DNA of 5,200 nucleotides, from positions 1-5,200 of the IMG/VR virus record IMGVR_UViG_3300000357_000284; one strand, given 5' to 3'. Numbering within the stretch: position 1 is the stretch's first letter; every line of letters starts with the position of its first letter. Source of the DNA: a virus. Its lineage: Duplodnaviria > Heunggongvirae > Uroviricota > Caudoviricetes. The notes beneath the pieces are model-generated. The model did no database searches, was not told the DNA's origin, and worked only from the letters and a program-made list of their open reading frames with translations. A program made the translations under genes and the position numbers. Positions 1 through 5,200 of this stretch are shown here, piece by piece.

Positions 1-1248
1 ATGGCACTGAATATTCCATTCAGAAATGCGTACTATCGTTTTGCATCCAGTTACTCATTTCTCTTTTTTATTTCCTGGTCGCTGTGGTGGTCGTTATACG
101 CTATTTGGCTGAAAGGACATCTAGGATTAACAGGGACGGAATTAGGTACACTTTATTCGGTCAACCAGTTTACCAGCATTCTATTTATGATGTTCTACGG
201 CATCGTTCAGGATAAACTCGGTCTGAAGAAACCGCTCATCTGGTGTATGAGTTTCATTCTGGTCTTGACCGGACCGTTTATGATTTACGTTTATGAACCG
301 TTACTGCAAAGCAATTTTTCTGTAGGTCTAATTCTGGGGGCGCTCTTTTTTGGCCTGGGGTATCTGGCGGGATGCGGTTTGCTTGACAGCTTCACCGAAA
401 AAATGGCGCGAAATTTTCATTTCGAATATGGAACAGCGCGCGCCTGGGGATCTTTTGGCTATGCTATTGGCGCGTTCTTTGCCGGTATATTTTTTAGTAT
501 CAGTCCCCATATCAACTTCTGGTTGGTCTCGCTATTTGGCGCTGTATTTATGATGATCAACATGCGTTTTAAAGATAAGGATCACCAGTGCATAGCGGCG
601 GATGCGGGAGGGGTAAAAAAAGAGGATTTTATCGCAGTTTTCAAGGATCGAAACTTCTGGGTTTTCGTCATATTTATTGTGGGGACGTGGTCTTTCTATA
701 ACATTTTTGATCAACAACTCTTTCCTGTCTTTTATGCAGGTTTATTCGAATCACACGATGTAGGAACGCGCCTGTATGGTTATCTCAACTCATTCCAGGT
801 GGTACTCGAAGCGCTGTGCATGGCGATTATTCCTTTCTTTGTGAATCGGGTAGGGCCAAAAAATGCATTACTTATCGGTGTTGTGATTATGGCGTTGCGT
901 ATCCTTTCTTGCGCGCTGTTCGTTAACCCCTGGATTATTTCATTAGTGAAGCTGTTACATGCCATTGAGGTTCCACTTTGTGTCATATCCGTCTTCAAAT
1001 ACAGCGTGGCAAACTTTGATAAGCGCCTGTCGTCGACGATCTTTCTGATTGGTTTTCAAATTGCCAGTTCGCTTGGGATTGTGCTGCTTTCAACGCCGAC
1101 TGGGATACTCTTTGACCACGCAGGCTACCAGACAGTTTTCTTCGCAATTTCGGGTATTGTCTGCCTGATGTTGCTATTTGGCATTTTCTTCCTGAGTAAA
1201 AAACGCGAGCAAATAGTTATGGAAACGCCTGTACCTTCAGCAATATAG
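1..1248 (+). CDS. cscB: Sucrose:H+ symporter (MFS, LacY-type oligosaccharide/H+ symporter family), complete, 415 aa
   Basis: Full ORF from ATG 1-3 to TAG 1246-1248. Translation is strongly hydrophobic with about 12 membrane segments and LacY-family-like stretches (EYGTARAWGSFGY, FDQQLFPVF, GPKNALL, VFKY). N-terminus MALNIPFRNAYYRF and length match my recollection of E. coli CscB. The four ORFs in the track inside this span are out-of-frame or antisense artefacts. Confidence 0.9.
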   Translation: MALNIPFRNAYYRFASSYSFLFFISWSLWWSLYAIWLKGHLGLTGTELGTLYSVNQFTSILFMMFYGIVQDKLGLKKPLIWCMSFILVLTGPFMIYVYEPLLQSNFSVGLILGALFFGLGYLAGCGLLDSFTEKMARNFHFEYGTARAWGSFGYAIGAFFAGIFFSISPHINFWLVSLFGAVFMMINMRFKDKDHQCIAADAGGVKKEDFIAVFKDRNFWVFVIFIVGTWSFYNIFDQQLFPVFYAGLFESHDVGTRLYGYLNSFQVVLEALCMAIIPFFVNRVGPKNALLIGVVIMALRILSCALFVNPWIISLVKLLHAIEVPLCVISVFKYSVANFDKRLSSTIFLIGFQIASSLGIVLLSTPTGILFDHAGYQTVFFAISGIVCLMLLFGIFFLSKKREQIVMETPVPSAI

Positions 1249-1258
1249 ACGTAAACTT

Positions 1259-1300
1259 TTTCCGGTTGTTGTCGATATCTCCATATCCCTCAACCGGAAA
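1259..1300. repeat. Perfect 10-bp inverted repeat (TTTCCGGTTG ... CAACCGGAAA) with a 22-nt loop, 11 nt after the cscB stop; possible 3' stem-loop or protein-binding palindrome, not a canonical intrinsic terminator
   Basis: Arms at 1259-1268 and 1291-1300 are exact reverse complements. The flank is A-rich downstream and T-rich upstream on the + strand, so there is no U-tract after the stem on either strand. Confidence 0.4.
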
Positions 1301-1327
1301 ATAATAATACAAAAATGCTTAGCCCAA

Positions 1328-1564
1328 CTAATAATCACCTAATCCAAACGCCTCATTCATGTTCTGGTACAGTCGCTCAAATGTACTCCGGATACGCGGT
1401 TCGCTGATTTCCAGGACATTGTCGTCATTCAGCGACCTGTCCCGAGTATCACGGGCCTGCGAATTCATCAAGGAATGCATTGCAGAGTGAAGTATCGAGT
1501 CACGCCATATTTCGCTATCAGGATTCTGTATGATGGTTACATCGCCCAGCCCAGGGCTGTTTAG
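1328..1564 (-). pseudogene. 3'-terminal gene remnant: open frame of 78 codons ending ...ERLYQNMNEAFGLGDY, TAG at 1330-1328, no start codon or RBS at the 5' end; identity unknown
   Basis: Manual translation of the minus strand gives an uninterrupted frame from 1564 to 1331, bounded upstream by an in-frame TGA at 1567-1565. The first ATG is internal (1480-1478, giving only 50 aa) and has no Shine-Dalgarno. No tyrosine-recombinase motifs are visible. Confidence 0.3.
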
Positions 1565-1689
1565 TCATCAGCGCTTTCTGACAGTGCTGAGATTTCAACC
1601 TGTTGCAGTAAAAATGAGTAGATATAGGGCAAGTGTGCTGCCAAACCCATCTTTTACGGGGTGAAGGTAGATTTGGTTTGAAGGGTATC

Positions 1690-1704
1690 TGGTGTCCCCT
1701 GCAG
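1690..1704 (-). other. Prophage attachment-site core: 15-nt exact copy of the 3' end of tRNA-Arg argW (CTGCAGGGGACACCA on the minus strand), attR-type junction
   Basis: Minus-strand 1704-1690 reads CTGCAGGGGACACCA, identical to the acceptor 3' half plus CCA of argW as I remember it. The sequence diverges from the tRNA immediately upstream, so this is a partial copy and not a tRNA gene. An excisionase gene lies 74 bp away. Confidence 0.6.
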
Positions 1705-1761
1705 ACATCTACTTGACGCGGCAGGGGATTGATTGGAATGGTGTTTTTTAGATGTGAAAAA

Positions 1762-1783
1762 TATTTTACCCGCTATTTTACCC
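1762..1783. repeat. Tandem direct repeat TATTTTACCC x2 (1762-1771 and 1774-1783) overlapping the torI stop codon; candidate arm-type or excisionase binding sites
   Basis: Two exact 10-bp copies separated by 2 nt, 58-79 bp from the att core. A 7-bp inverted repeat ACATCTA/TAGATGT (1705-1711 and 1750-1756) lies in the same arm. Confidence 0.35.
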
Positions 1784-1978
1784 ATTGGCGCGGCTTAAGA
1801 GCTTATTTTTGAATTCACAATGGTCACGATATAACCATCTTGCTCGCCCGTGGATAACTTTGGCTTTTGGCAGGTCGCCGGACTTAATCCGGTCATAGAT
1901 GAAGGTTTTACCGAAGCCAGTATCGGCCATGATGAATTTCAAATCAACCAGTGAATCAGGTTGTAGTTCGTGTTGCAT
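1778..1978 (-). CDS. torI: AlpA/Xis-family winged-helix excisionase (recombination directionality factor), 66 aa; matches my recollection of TorI of the KplE1/CPS-53 prophage
   Basis: ATG 1978-1976 preceded by GGAG (1991-1988, 9-nt spacer); TAA at 1780-1778. The 66-aa product contains the AlpA-like core ADTGFGKTFIYDRIKSGDLPKAKVIHGRARWLYRD. It sits next to the argW-derived att core with no integrase nearby, which is the known KplE1 layout (int at attL, RDF at attR). Confidence 0.7.
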   Translation of the reverse strand: MQHELQPDSLVDLKFIMADTGFGKTFIYDRIKSGDLPKAKVIHGRARWLYRDHCEFKNKLLSRANG

Positions 1979-1983
1979 GAGTG

Positions 1984-2202
1984 CTATCTCCGAATAGGGA
2001 ATCGAACCTGCAAATCAGGCAATAAAAAACCGCCATCAGGCGGCTTGGTGTTTTTCAGTTCTTCAATTCGAATATTGGTTACGTCTGCATGTGCTATCTG
2101 CGCCCACAGCATCCAGTGGTCATAGCAGTCATTGATGTTCTCTGCTTCGATAACTCTGTTGAATGGCTCTCCATTCCATTCACCTGTAACTCGGAAGTGC
2201 AT
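1984..2202 (-). CDS. Doubtful 72-aa ORF (MHFRVTGEWNGEPFNRVIEAENINDCYDHW...), possibly a gene remnant; reads through the terminator hairpin and the tRNA-like block
   Basis: ATG 2202-2200 with GGAG at 2213-2210 (7-nt spacer), but the start lies inside the U-tail of an upstream terminator and the last ~25 codons are encoded by the 2030-2043 hairpin and the argW T-arm-like block. TAG at 1986-1984. Confidence 0.3.
   Translation of the reverse strand: MHFRVTGEWNGEPFNRVIEAENINDCYDHWMLWAQIAHADVTNIRIEELKNTKPPDGGFLLPDLQVRFPIRR
1998..2013 (-). other. 16-nt block identical to the argW T-arm region (TTGCAGGTTCGATTCC on the minus strand), separated from the 15-nt core by 293 bp that contain torI
   Basis: Minus-strand 2013-1998 reads TTGCAGGTTCGATTCC. 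In argW this sequence is directly followed by TGCAGGGGACACCA, but here it is followed by CTATTCGG, so no cloverleaf can form. It overlaps the torI RBS region. Confidence 0.4.
2024..2055 (-). terminator. Intrinsic terminator: GC hairpin CCGCC-ATCA-GGCGG (2030-2043) followed on the minus strand by TTTTTTATT; weaker in the + direction
   Basis: 5-bp GC stem with 4-nt loop; A-run 2024-2029 gives a U6 tract right after the stem on the minus transcript. On the + strand the T-run (2051-2055) is 7 nt from the stem. Confidence 0.55.
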
Positions 2203-2213
2203 TTATCATCTCC

Positions 2214-2240
2214 ATAAAACAAAACTCGCCGTAGCGAGTT
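2214..2240 (-). terminator. Intrinsic terminator: 7-bp stem AACTCGC / GCGAGTT (2223-2229 and 2234-2240) with 4-nt loop, followed on the minus strand by TTTTGTTTTAT
   Basis: Perfect 7-bp inverted repeat with tetraloop; T-rich tail on the minus strand (plus 2212-2222); about 70 nt downstream of the stop of the 2310-2570 gene. Confidence 0.5.
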
Positions 2241-2309
2241 CAGATAAAAGAAATCCCCGCGAGTGCGAGGATTGTTATTCACCTTTGACGGCAAGTTGCA
2301 GGTTAGCCA

Positions 2310-2570
2310 TTACCGCACCTCCAGTCTCCATACCGCCTGACCAATCCGGCTGGCATAGGTATCTTTGGATACTGCTCCGTCTTTAGCCAGCTCCATAAGA
2401 ATTTTGCGCAAATCTGCCGAACGCCATTCTTCATCAGGAAATTCCTTCTCCATTGCCAAGCGCAGATTCCAGGTTGCCATCCTGAATGGATATTCCCCGC
2501 CGAGAGCTTTATCTTGCAGGGCAGCCCGGGAACGCATCACCTGCAAAACCTTCTCTTTTACATCCATCAT
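2310..2570 (-). CDS. Hypothetical phage protein, about 86 aa (MMDVKEKVLQVMRSRAALQDKALGGEYPFRMATWNLRLAMEKEFPDEEWRSADLRKILMELAKDGAVSKDTYASRIGQAVWRLEVR)
   Basis: AGGAGG at 2580-2575 followed by ATGATG (2570-2565); the first ATG overlaps the TGA of the upstream gene (ATGA coupling). TAA at 2312-2310. The track ORF begins 18 codons earlier, inside the upstream gene, which I treat as an over-extension. Confidence 0.6.
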   Translation of the reverse strand: MMDVKEKVLQVMRSRAALQDKALGGEYPFRMATWNLRLAMEKEFPDEEWRSADLRKILMELAKDGAVSKDTYASRIGQAVWRLEVR

Positions 2571-3130
2571 TTCGCCTCCTGCGGCGGCTCTGGTAGCGGC
2601 ATCCAGTGGGTTACTCCATGCCATATACCAGTTAAGGTTTCAAACCTTGGCTCTCTGCCTTTCTGTGTCTTGGCATATTCATTCCTTGTATATACGCATT
2701 GTCTAACTGCATATCCATTCCATCCAATAACTGTTTGTCTAATTTCAGGCATTCGCTCACTACAGCTTATCCAACCATCCGGAGTTACCGGAGTTGGTCC
2801 ATCGAATTCTGGCATGTCAGGACCTTTTCTGATAGCTTTAGCCAGCTCCAGCGGGTCATCGTAAAGCCAGTCGCCAGTTTGTGGGTGATTTGCTTCTGCA
2901 AGCTGCGCAGCCCATTCAAGACCATCTTTTTGACCTTGGAGATAATCAAGCGGCAACTCTTCATGATTACTTGCAGGTTCTGCACTATCAGCTTCGCGCC
3001 GCTTCTGTAGCTCTGCTGCCATCGCTCTCACGACTTCAACTGGTGCCCTTGCAGCAAACTCTATGTTGGTGATCAGCTCATTAAGATATTGCTCGCTGGG
3101 ATACTGTTTCTTATTGGTAATAGTGGTCAT
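2567..3130 (-). CDS. Phage protein with C-terminal DUF551-like domain (GWISCSERMPE ... THWMPLPEPP), 187 aa
   Basis: ATG 3130-3128 overlaps the TGA (3129-3127) of the upstream gene. The C-terminal ~70 aa carry the W-I-S...LPE and HWMPLPEPP pattern I associate with DUF551 proteins of enterobacterial prophages. The N-terminal ~110 aa are acidic and unassigned. Confidence 0.75.
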   Translation of the reverse strand: MTTITNKKQYPSEQYLNELITNIEFAARAPVEVVRAMAAELQKRREADSAEPASNHEELPLDYLQGQKDGLEWAAQLAEANHPQTGDWLYDDPLELAKAIRKGPDMPEFDGPTPVTPDGWISCSERMPEIRQTVIGWNGYAVRQCVYTRNEYAKTQKGREPRFETLTGIWHGVTHWMPLPEPPQEAK

Positions 3131-3642
3131 GCCGCGTTTCCTTCTTTCTTATTAACAATTACACCGTCATATATTTCATTAAGGTGCCCTCTCAACTCCA
3201 TGCGCCTTAATGCAGATAACATGTAATCGCATTCAACCTGCTTATTTCCAGTAAATGGCTTATCGTCAGGATTACCCCAACAGCAATTACCCTTGGGCCA
3301 TCCATGTACTTTCCGTACTCTTCCGTTAACAACGTGAAGTAATCCCCAGCCGGGTGGTAAATCCTCAACTGAAATAATTCCCGGCTCACTAATAAAGAAT
3401 CGCCAGTCGCCCATTCCAAGAGACGGATTTTTACGAAAACGCTTTTTTCTATCTGCCAACAAGTCAGCACGAGAACATTTCGCCTCTATCAGGCATGATG
3501 CTGAATTTCTGAATCCCATAGCATCTGGCTGTTCTCCGGTACTGGTTACAGCTATAAAGCGGTCATGAAAACAAACCTTGAACTCGTTGCGCTTAAGGAA
3601 CTTATACGCAATCTGACAGAGTTCGCGGTGTGTTAACGCCAT
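3127..3642 (-). CDS. PD-(D/E)XK-fold nuclease-like protein, 171 aa from ATG 3642 (MALTHRELCQIAYKFLKRN...)
   Basis: Start ATG 3642-3640 is preceded by AAAGGAGAGTGAT. The track ORF starts 6 codons earlier and would translate through the RBS itself (MGKESD-MALT). Motif order fits the PD-(D/E)XK core: helix with E (HRELCQIAYKFLK), strand ending in PD (GEQPDAMGF), then E-x-K (CLIEAK). Family (VRR-NUC-like or MmcB-like) not resolved. Confidence 0.65.
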   Translation of the reverse strand: MALTHRELCQIAYKFLKRNEFKVCFHDRFIAVTSTGEQPDAMGFRNSASCLIEAKCSRADLLADRKKRFRKNPSLGMGDWRFFISEPGIISVEDLPPGWGLLHVVNGRVRKVHGWPKGNCCWGNPDDKPFTGNKQVECDYMLSALRRMELRGHLNEIYDGVIVNKKEGNAA

Positions 3643-3655
3643 ATCACTCTCCTTT
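3638..3655 (-). promoter_or_regulatory. Conserved translation-initiation module, copy 1 (minus strand AAAGGAGAGTGATATGGC), start of the nuclease-like gene
   Basis: 18-nt exact identity with copy 3 (4375-4392); contains SD GGAGAG, an in-module TGA and the ATG. Confidence 0.6.
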
Positions 3656-3678
3656 CCCATGTTGTCATGTGTTAGTCC

Positions 3679-3942
3679 TTATCCTGCTGTGCTTTCAACT
3701 GATGAGGGGAATAAAATCTTTTCATCAAATCCGGCATTCATATCATGGACAGCAACACACCAATCCATCGACGAACGATTATCAAGAGCCTCCATGATTT
3801 CATCCATGCGGCGCAGGTCATACAGGTAAATGTTTTTATCGCCAATGGTGTAAAAACCAATTTTTTTCGGTGATGGGCAGCGATCAAGAACTTCCTGTAA
3901 TTCGTTCAACCATGCCTGTTCTTTTTTTGTCAAAGTTGCCAT
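3679..3942 (-). CDS. Hypothetical small protein, 87 aa (MATLTKKEQAWLNELQEVLDRCPSPKKIGFYTIGDKNIYLYDLRRMDEIMEALDNRSSMDWCVAVHDMNAGFDEKILFPSSVESTAG)
   Basis: ATG 3942-3940 is 1 nt after the TGA (3946-3944) of the upstream gene and is preceded by AAGGAAAG. TAA at 3681-3679. The track ORF starts 30 codons further upstream without an RBS. Confidence 0.55.
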   Translation of the reverse strand: MATLTKKEQAWLNELQEVLDRCPSPKKIGFYTIGDKNIYLYDLRRMDEIMEALDNRSSMDWCVAVHDMNAGFDEKILFPSSVESTAG

Positions 3943-3943
3943 A

Positions 3944-4162
3944 TCAGCTTTCCTTATACGGATTAATTTTATTGTGCAGTGTGTTGAACGACGCCCATAC
4001 CACGTCGTTATACAATTCAATAACTGGCTCAATTACTTTTCCGATTATCCAGGCCAGTAATAGCGGGGATATCGGTATCATCAACACGATAAACAGAATG
4101 AGAAACAAAAATTCTATCGCTCTACTTTTTCGCGGATATTCTTTTCTGAATAATGTAGGCAC
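3944..4162 (-). CDS. Small single-pass membrane protein, 72 aa, GTG start (MPTLFRKEYPRKSRAIEFLFLILFIVLMIPISPLLLAWIIGKVIEPVIELYNDVVWASFNTLHNKINPYKES)
   Basis: GTG 4162-4160 preceded by AAAGGAGAGTGAT and 1 nt after the TGA (4166-4164) of the upstream gene. One 25-residue hydrophobic helix after a basic N-terminus (positive-inside). The ATG in another frame at 4164-4162 gives only 16 codons. Confidence 0.5.
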   Translation of the reverse strand: MPTLFRKEYPRKSRAIEFLFLILFIVLMIPISPLLLAWIIGKVIEPVIELYNDVVWASFNTLHNKINPYKES

Positions 4163-4175
4163 ATCACTCTCCTTT
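4160..4175 (-). promoter_or_regulatory. Conserved translation-initiation module, copy 2 (minus strand AAAGGAGAGTGATGTG), stop of the Cys-rich gene and GTG start of the membrane-protein gene
   Basis: 15 of 16 positions identical to copies 1 and 3; the single change converts ATG to GTG. Confidence 0.55.
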
Positions 4176-4379
4176 GTTGCTCCTCAAAATTTTATGCCCT
4201 GGCGCAAAAGCACGCGTTTTGTCGGCGCTTATTCGCCACCCATCTTTACGTGCCTCTTTTGCACAGCCAGCCCATGACGTACCGATATACTCACCGAAGT
4301 CTGGCACTGGATATACACCTTCCGTACACTGGCGGCAGTCACAATAGAGATGCATGGTGTAACTTGCGGCAATAGCCAT
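4164..4379 (-). CDS. Cys-rich small protein, 71 aa, putative zinc-binding (HLYCDCRQC ... GC); family unknown
   Basis: ATG 4379-4377 preceded by AAAGGAGAGTGAT and 1 nt after the TGA (4383-4381) of the upstream gene. C-x-C-x2-C cluster plus a fourth Cys 22 residues later. The track ORF starts 24 codons upstream, inside the preceding gene. Confidence 0.55.
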   Translation of the reverse strand: MAIAASYTMHLYCDCRQCTEGVYPVPDFGEYIGTSWAGCAKEARKDGWRISADKTRAFAPGHKILRSNKGE

Positions 4380-4392
4380 ATCACTCTCCTTT
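4375..4392 (-). promoter_or_regulatory. Conserved translation-initiation module, copy 3 (minus strand AAAGGAGAGTGATATGGC), stop of the basic-protein gene and start of the Cys-rich gene
   Basis: 18-nt exact identity with copy 1; the TGA inside the module is the real stop of the upstream gene here. Confidence 0.6.
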
Positions 4393-4569
4393 AGTACGCA
4401 AGTGGTTTTTCCAGCGGTTTTGCGCCGCGCTGGGCTTTTTGCAAAAACCACAATCCATCATCCCGTAATGTTTCATTAACCCCATCCGTCGGTTGCTGAG
4501 TCTCACCCACTGCCATACGCCTGGATCGTTTCTGCGAACTAACAGAATCTTTGCTTTACGGTTTTTCAT
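4381..4569 (-). CDS. Small basic protein, 62 aa (MKNRKAKILLVRRNDPGVWQWVRLSNRRMGLMKHYGMMDCGFCKKPSAAQNRWKNHLRTKGE)
   Basis: ATG 4569-4567 preceded by GGAGAG (7-nt spacer); overlaps the 3' end of the Ea22-like gene by 14 nt. The track start at 4662 is a TTG without RBS. Net charge is strongly positive, suggesting nucleic-acid binding. Confidence 0.45.
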   Translation of the reverse strand: MKNRKAKILLVRRNDPGVWQWVRLSNRRMGLMKHYGMMDCGFCKKPSAAQNRWKNHLRTKGE

Positions 4570-5200
4570 CGCTTTGCTCTCCTGCGTCTCCTTTGATGCG
4601 AATGCCAGGGGCGCGTGGCACATTAACTTCCACGATGCGCACAGTTGGTTTGTACATCTCAATCGCTGTCAGCCAGTCAGCTCCTGTCATGCGCTTTTCC
4701 GCATCGCCATTAGTCCACTGAACCGGTACACCAATAGCCTTCATCGCGATTTCTATTTCCCCGGCAATGGCGCTTTTTCCGCAACCAGTAAAACCAGATA
4801 CAACGACAAGAACTTCGCCTTTGGCTGGTTTTATTTCCCGTGCTTCCAGTTCTGCTATGCGCTTCTCTGCGGATTCCAGCGCCGCAACCAATTCGTCTAC
4901 AGTTCCGGCAGCTTGCAGTGCGTAATCGGTAATAGCCATCTCATGATCAATTTCAGTACCGTTCTCATTCGTTGAGGTGATAGCAAAATAATCAGAGTCG
5001 ATTTCGTTATCAGCTAAGTGGCGTAGCGTATCGGCAACAAGCCGGCCGTTTTCGATTAGCAGCTTCCCAACCGTAAGAGCAATTTCCTCGTTCTCCTGGT
5101 CGCGGGATTTGATGTACTGCTGGTTTCTTTCCCGTTCATCCAGAAGCGCCAGCACAGTAGCCGGATTGGCTGCGGCGATGAATTCAGCATTGGCCTGCTG
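4556..5200 (-). CDS. Ea22-like early-region phage protein, 5'-truncated by the window edge (at least 214 codons); C-terminal part contains a Walker-A-like GFTGCGKS
   Basis: The frame is open from 5200 down to TAA 4558-4556; the track start at 5155 is an internal GTG. The N-terminal stretch FIAAANPATVLALLDERERN followed by a coiled-coil-like region resembles Ead/Ea22-like proteins as I remember them. Codons for G-F-T-G-C-G-K-S map to 4795-4772 after a hydrophobic strand VLVVVS. Confidence 0.6.
   Translation of the reverse strand, partial: QQANAEFIAAANPATVLALLDERERNQQYIKSRDQENEEIALTVGKLLIENGRLVADTLRHLADNEIDSDYFAITSTNENGTEIDHEMAITDYALQAAGTVDELVAALESAEKRIAELEAREIKPAKGEVLVVVSGFTGCGKSAIAGEIEIAMKAIGVPVQWTNGDAEKRMTGADWLTAIEMYKPTVRIVEVNVPRAPGIRIKGDAGEQSDEKP

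Follow-up and report, generated by a model that had tools for sequence, protein, structure and literature searches.

Gene organization

The DNA analysed here, which we call the window, is a stretch of 5,200 nucleotides (positions 1 to 5,200 of IMG/VR virus record IMGVR_UViG_3300000357_000284, Caudoviricetes). It carries, within a tightly packed run of minus-strand genes spanning approximately 1780 to 5155, a gene for a small protein (the target) that is a homologue of the MmcB family of DNA repair proteins and has a predicted PD-(D/E)XK nuclease fold. The open reading frame (ORF) is real. The list of ORFs gives 3127..3660, corresponding to 177 amino acids (aa), and the ATG at 3642 (MALTH...) is the better start, yielding 171 aa. 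It is preferred over the in-frame ATG at 3660 because the sequence AAGGAG is found 6 nt upstream of it. The length of 171 aa is the commonest among homologues of the protein, and the exact sequence belongs to the dominant public cluster of 1363 members, nearly all of 171 aa. The coordinates of the gene, its principal codons and the adjoining features are collected in Table 1.

Table 1. Features of the nuclease-like gene and its surroundings (positions are those of the window)
Feature	Position	Strand	Basis or remarks
MmcB-like PD-(D/E)XK nuclease-fold coding sequence, 171 aa	3127..3642	-	ORF; phrog_9263/phrog_631; AlphaFold2 pLDDT 94.0
Shine-Dalgarno AAGGAG, 6-nt spacer to ATG at 3642	3649..3654	-	sequence read directly
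Predicted catalytic core, D27 to D64	3451..3564	-	conservation and alignment with MmcB
D27 codon	3562-3564	-	
E37 codon	3532-3534	-	
D40 codon	3523-3525	-	
E53 codon	3484-3486	-	
K55 codon	3478-3480	-	followed by S57-R58-x-D60-x-x-x-D64
Variable loop GWPKGNCCWGNPDDKPF, aa 114-130	3253..3303	-	low model confidence; insertions and deletions across family
C-terminal helix, aa 134-148, with conserved E137 and R146-R147 (SALRR)	3199..3243	-	conservation, hhalign
ATGA junction, nuclease TGA stop / DUF551 ATG	3127..3130	-	plus strand reads tcat
DUF551 gene downstream, 187 aa	2567..3130	-	context only; PF04448 E 6e-16 at aa 119-184, C-terminal
torI, KplE1-type excisionase (xis)	1778-1978	-	

Conserved residues and predicted fold

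Conservation was assessed in 123 near-full-length representatives of no more than 50% mutual identity. Residues D40 (123/123), D60, G78 and R81 are present in all of them; E53 and K55 (122/123 each), D64, K67, R70 and L101 in 99%; and E37, P39, W99 and E137 in 98%. Position 27 is acidic (D or E) in 99%, H5 is retained in 97%, and R146 and R147 in about 90%. The original prediction, made from the letters of the window, had read the order of a PD-(D/E)XK enzyme in the translation, and that order is present: a helix (5-18) with E7, GEQPD with D40, and IEAK with E53 and K55. A match of this kind goes far past what chance would give. D40, E53 and K55 are conserved in 99-100% of the representatives, the signature of a strand-2 D and a strand-3 (D/E)-x-K thus being kept among homologues, and the near-total conservation of the catalytic residues argues for an active enzyme. 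The helix glutamate, also counted at first among the catalytic elements, is not supported as one: E7 is acidic in only 69% of the representatives, and the conserved additional acids are those at 27 and 37. A Trp/Cys-rich C-terminal region had been singled out as well. The segment, GWPKGNCCWGNPDDKPF, exists, and it is a poorly conserved loop, variable in sequence and length across the family, rather than a domain or metal site. A zinc or other metal module was rejected since C120 and C121 are not conserved.

Structures were predicted with AlphaFold2. With 25 close homologues as input one of the five models was confident, with a predicted local distance difference test (pLDDT) score of 83.5, the other four scoring approximately 61; with 46 diverse homologues all five scored 92.6-94.0 and contained the same elements, namely a helix (5-18), three strands (23-26, 41-45 and 48-54), a helix (58-64), a strand (80-85), a hairpin (100-113) and a C-terminal helix (134-150). 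Both predictions share the alpha-beta-beta-beta-alpha-beta core of PD-(D/E)XK proteins, which is the restriction endonuclease-like fold anticipated from the motifs. In the models D40 is placed where strand 2 begins and E53 and K55 where strand 3 ends, which is canonical for this class. The loop formed by aa 114-130 is their lowest-confidence internal stretch.

Relationship to MmcB, Hjc and VRR-NUC

Since direct family searches were empty, profiles were needed to place the target; a single-sequence phmmer search of the Protein Data Bank (PDB) gave a chance match only. When the first predicted structure was compared with the PDB using Foldseek, the sole significant match was 3dnx [E 5.5e-5; template modelling scores 0.57/0.65], which is protein SPO1766 of Ruegeria pomeroyi. 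A search with part of the 3dnx sequence returned nothing but entries of PF06319 (formerly DUF1052), labelled "MmcB family DNA repair protein", and 3dnx is, therefore, an MmcB-family protein. The matches in the BFVD library of viral structures include phage proteins annotated as "MmcB-like DNA repair protein". A profile built from the diverse family also found 3dnx in the PDB [1.3e-4], with the chains of Hjc following at E 0.13-0.4. Comparison of the target family by hhalign with an MmcB alignment of limited diversity, whose members are 74-86% identical to the first of them, gave a probability of 98.1% [8.8e-14] over 96 columns. A permissive alignment is collinear over 140 columns and pairs the SALRR helix of the target with the C-terminal AARRL helix of MmcB. 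Residues D27, D40, E53, K55, D60 and D64 are each matched by an invariant position of MmcB.

Homology to the family that includes 3dnx and Caulobacter crescentus MmcB is, as a result, demonstrated by both profile-profile and structural comparison. The two families have in common the acidic residue of strand 1, D40, E53-x-K55, S57-R58-x-D60-F-x-x-D64, R81 and G100-L101, while H5, E37-x-P39, K67-x-F-R70, G76-M-G78, W99 and E137 are found in the target family and absent from MmcB. The MmcB sequences which we retrieved were all from the Rhodobacteraceae. MmcB has been described as a PD-(D/E)XK endonuclease which protects Caulobacter from mitomycin C and cisplatin, and has been proposed as a partner of translesion polymerases in cross-link repair (PMC9578287). 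The Caulobacter gene was described in the same work as SOS-regulated, whereas members of the target family are mostly phage- or prophage-borne and lie in a phage early operon. Because the target belongs to such a prophage operon, any link of its gene to the SOS response would be only indirect, via prophage induction.

The archaeal Holliday junction resolvase Hjc (PF01870; 1hh1, 4tkd) is likewise a small single-domain PD-(D/E)XK enzyme. Its motif block, PDaiGf...liEcK-SR-D, is near-identical to PDIIALKNGVIILIEMKSRKD of the target, and the D-to-E spacing is 13 residues in both. Sub-threshold Pfam matches to Hjc were found for 29 of 46 relatives [best E 1.3e-4], and to MmcB-like proteins for 11 [2.9e-4]. 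The Pfam gathering threshold for PF06319 was reached by neither the target, which has no match to it at E <= 0.1, nor any of these relatives; similarly, the target has no match to PF01870 and none of the 46 passes its threshold. Given strong profile-profile homology together with the failure to pass any curated threshold, we regard the target as an MmcB homologue in a sister family lying outside PF06319 as now defined, its resemblance to Hjc being weaker. The kind of enzyme is already known, and the target family is, in practice, a new sister family within it that lacks a model. VRR-NUC (PF08774; e.g. 4qbn), which had been offered beside MmcB as a possible affiliation, shares with the target the generic PD-(D/E)XK core and a frequent location in phages; membership was rejected as there was no sequence or profile match to that family, so that MmcB alone stands of the two.

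Distribution of the family

Within the PHROGs the target corresponds to phrog_9263 [9e-123] and phrog_631 [1e-94], both of "unknown function". A profile search of 1.84 billion representatives, in which the family was counted as clusters at 50% identity, revealed 3200 clusters at E <= 1e-3 and 2386 at E <= 1e-10; the best homologue matches of the target reach 1e-118. Among complete E. coli genomes 1090 of 5426 carry a gene of this family, in up to six copies, and all of these copies are annotated as "hypothetical protein". The phages which contain it are both temperate and virulent, and include lambdoid phages, Shiga toxin (Stx) phages, the phiV10-like TL-2011b, Klebsiella and Vibrio phages, and large virulent Ackermannviridae. 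Beyond the enterobacteria it occurs in prophage-like loci of the Alphaproteobacteria, Bacteroidota, Bacillota, Desulfobacterota, Spirochaetes and others.

Some homologues are fused to other domains: an Ead/Ea22 N-terminus (P0087, P0098), a DUF550 dATP/dGTP pyrophosphohydrolase (P0207) or a TniB-like AAA+ ATPase (P0136). The variety of these partners indicates that the nuclease domain behaves as a shuffled module. In the Ackermannviridae homologue Vi01_091c (205 aa; Salmonella phage Vi01, locus L083, 3980-5661) the match to the target is limited to the N-terminal core of approximately 110 aa, the C-terminal part being different, and the gene and the start of the abutting DNA primase gene share one base. 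Of 1484 E. coli places holding the gene, 263 are plasmid-borne, on plasmids of approximately 58-92 kb (e.g. NZ_CP085058.1, NZ_CP122506.1), which are possibly phage-plasmids.

Operon context and neighbouring genes

The window opens with cscB (sucrose permease; 1-1248, plus strand). The minus-strand genes follow, in order of transcription, as an Ead/Ea22-like gene (4556-5155), three small genes of PHROG families of unknown function, the target, the DUF551 gene, phrog_2814, phrog_676 and torI. The related E. coli prophage L001 (E. coli W46, NZ_CP163115.1) extends upstream with recT, kil and a cI/cro switch. This gene order, together with the upstream genes in L001, assigns the target to the exo-xis (early-left) region of an E. 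coli prophage of the KplE1/P22-like type that adjoins cscB. No complete E. coli genome contains at least 80% of the window in one place, and such scattering fits a mosaic region, as expected.

Neighbourhoods were compared, using simple ORF calling, at 82 viral and 36 bacterial loci. Besides DUF551, the neighbours in the viral loci include NinB, NinG, SSB, dATP/dGTP pyrophosphohydrolase, Ead/Ea22, NinE, SNF2/ResIII helicases and C5 methylases; of the 133 ORFs lying close to the homologues in distant bacterial loci, 10 encode DNA methyltransferases, which belong to several classes.

Proposed function

In PD-(D/E)XK enzymes the strand-2 Asp and strand-3 Glu bind metal, and the Lys activates water or stabilizes the transition state. 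By analogy D40 and E53 of the target would coordinate Mg2+, with D/E27 and E37 probably assisting, K55 would place the attacking water, and the basic residues R58, K67, R70, R81 and R146/R147 would grip the DNA backbone. Once infection has taken place or the prophage is induced, the gene would be transcribed within the early-left (pL-type, exo-xis) operon, and its product, working alone or as a homo-oligomer, may cut DNA structures rather than sequences, such as branched, stalled-fork, junction or damaged DNA. We consider it reasonably probable that the target is a small, single-domain, metal-dependent PD-(D/E)XK DNA endonuclease, structure-selective and serving phage replication, recombination or repair. 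This reading is suggested by MmcB as the nearest characterized relative, by the Holliday junction resolvases as the next resemblance, and by the early expression of the gene, its occurrence in temperate as well as virulent phages, and its neighbours concerned with replication and recombination.

Several observations weigh against this proposal. Pfam (at E <= 0.1) and NCBIfam gave no match for the target protein. The fold searches were run with the weaker of the two models, which had a pLDDT of 83.5 and was confident in one of five AlphaFold2 runs. Our literature searches turned up no account of MmcB being assayed for nuclease activity in vitro and, using MmcB-like, DUF551 and exo-xis nucleases as subjects, no functional study of the target family. 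H5 and E137 are conserved and have no assigned role in the mechanism described above. The gene neighbourhood of the family is highly variable, which makes the argument from association with DNA metabolism a weak one, and accessory and regulatory genes are also plentiful in the exo-xis region.

Alternative explanations

The stop codon of the target gene overlaps the start of a DUF551 gene, as originally noted, and stoichiometric co-expression had been deduced from this ATGA. An obligate two-protein unit, held at a fixed ratio through translational coupling, would account for the overlap, which is real, and for the recurrence of the nuclease-then-DUF551 order in close relatives (phages TL-2011b and Lys12581Vzw, and loci L001, L007, L011 and L017); a 4-bp overlap accompanies this order in Lys12581Vzw, L001, L002, L007, L011 and L017. 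A distant homologue, P0213, has a DUF551-like tail at a sub-threshold score [8.4e-4]. The order is not fixed, however: in Pfam scans of immediate neighbours DUF551 was downstream in 6 of 81 and upstream in 3 of 74 related viral loci, and a conserved nuclease-DUF551 operon was consequently rejected as a feature of the family. Across the 82 viral loci, moreover, 4-bp or similar overlaps are formed with downstream and upstream genes whatever their identity, and the next junction in the window is of the same kind (ATGA at 2567-2570, minus strand, joining the DUF551 stop to the start of phrog_2814, with AGGAGG 5 nt upstream). In the adjacent DUF551 proteins the attached N-terminal part is of varying length (186-317 aa), and DUF551 has been described as a portable, promiscuous domain of the exo-xis region (PMC10834534). 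We attribute the overlap to the way in which these operons are generically packed and the DUF551 adjacency to local mosaicism, and consider that stoichiometry was read too readily into the ATGA; a functional nuclease-DUF551 link is possible and not supported, and an obligate unit seems to us quite improbable. Portable partners (DUF551 tails, Ead/Ea22 N-terminal coiled coils and DUF550, each encountered as a fusion or a neighbour) might instead recruit the target as a modular exo-xis effector, as opposed to a housekeeping repair nuclease. An effector of that kind would act on one particular structure in host or phage DNA and, by cutting it, sway the choice between lysis and lysogeny, set off or modulate the SOS response, or inactivate a host defence. 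This, too, we hold to be a slim prospect.

The remaining alternatives concern the DNA that is cut, or whether any is. As an anti-defence or defence accessory effector, for example a nuclease destroying a nucleic acid component or trigger of host immunity, the target would be at home in a mosaic accessory region, among neighbours such as Ead/Ea22, DUF551 and the type of dATP/dGTP pyrophosphohydrolase reported to inhibit host restriction, and a copy number varying up to six per genome would be in keeping. A role of this kind had been raised at the outset. We found no support for it: a search of PADLOC-DB 2.0 at E <= 0.1 gave nothing for the target and, among seven neighbouring ORFs, only a chance-level match for the Ea22-like ORF; no tie of the family to defence was found in the literature; and its occurrence in large virulent phages beside primase, and across many phyla, suggests a core role in DNA metabolism. 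A defence role is accordingly unlikely, and so, to a similar degree, is a nuclease directed against host or competitor DNA (restriction-like, for host shutoff, or for superinfection exclusion), which would sometimes be paired with a protective phage DNA methyltransferase. There is no methylase in the window or the whole early arm of prophage L001, the methylases associated elsewhere are of unrelated classes, as expected from mere co-residence in phage early regions, the family is, unlike restriction enzymes, well conserved across many phyla, and PADLOC again provided no match. Restriction-modification pairing in particular, considered on account of the nearby methylases, was judged unlikely given their mixed classes and their absence from the target locus. 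Finally, some PD-(D/E)XK-fold proteins are non-catalytic and the exo-xis region encodes several small regulators, so that the target could be an inactive DNA-binding or regulatory protein keeping the nuclease fold. A full catalytic set conserved at 98-100% in 123 divergent representatives is unexpected for a scaffold, and we regard this as very improbable.

A structure-selective endonuclease of phage DNA metabolism is, therefore, the reading which we carry forward. Its consequence is that a large set of proteins labelled "hypothetical" in every database consulted can be placed in a known enzyme family, an incremental rather than a conceptual advance. The gene is found in about one-fifth of complete E. 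coli genomes, Shiga toxin phages included, and in phage lineages that number thousands and span many phyla. For curators the placement supplies an MmcB-like PD-(D/E)XK annotation and the basis on which a further family model could be built beside PF06319, and the residues to be mutated are D27, E37, D40, E53 and K55. The little-studied MmcB family gains a far larger set of relatives, genetically testable in E. coli phages, and one defined, predicted enzymatic activity is added to the exo-xis region of lambdoid and Stx phages, of which little is understood. Should the modular effector prove to be the correct interpretation, the target would open DUF551 and Ea22-type modules to biochemical study for the first time.

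Other features of the region

No promoter-like sites were found on the minus strand across 1200-5200 of the window, and no tRNA or other RNA feature in the window. Terminator-like sites number seven in the region against 3.4 expected. Terminator-like hairpins on the minus strand occur downstream of the target only; the three of them (2273-2222 and 2046-2027) lie between phrog_2814, phrog_676 and torI, and may be antitermination-dependent checkpoints ahead of xis. The 104-aa ORF at 2310-2624 is probably the 86-aa gene starting at 2570. A 50-aa ORF (1328-1480, minus strand) is a DUF4942 fragment according to RefSeq, and the end of the prophage must fall between approximately 1250 and 1780.

The Ead/Ea22-like ORF at 4556-5155 (minus strand) matches PF13935 [3.8e-8] and contains a Walker A-like GFTGCGKS at approximately aa 111-118, with weak APS-kinase and AAA matches [0.004-0.09] in its C-terminal part; these features point to a protein in which a small P-loop module follows an Ea22-type N-terminus. 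In L001 an intact homologue of the target gene [2e-119] occupies 9633-10166 without a gene annotation, RefSeq having a "frameshifted" pseudo-coding sequence at 9970-10148; the missing gene call is probably an annotation gap arising from the lack of a family model.
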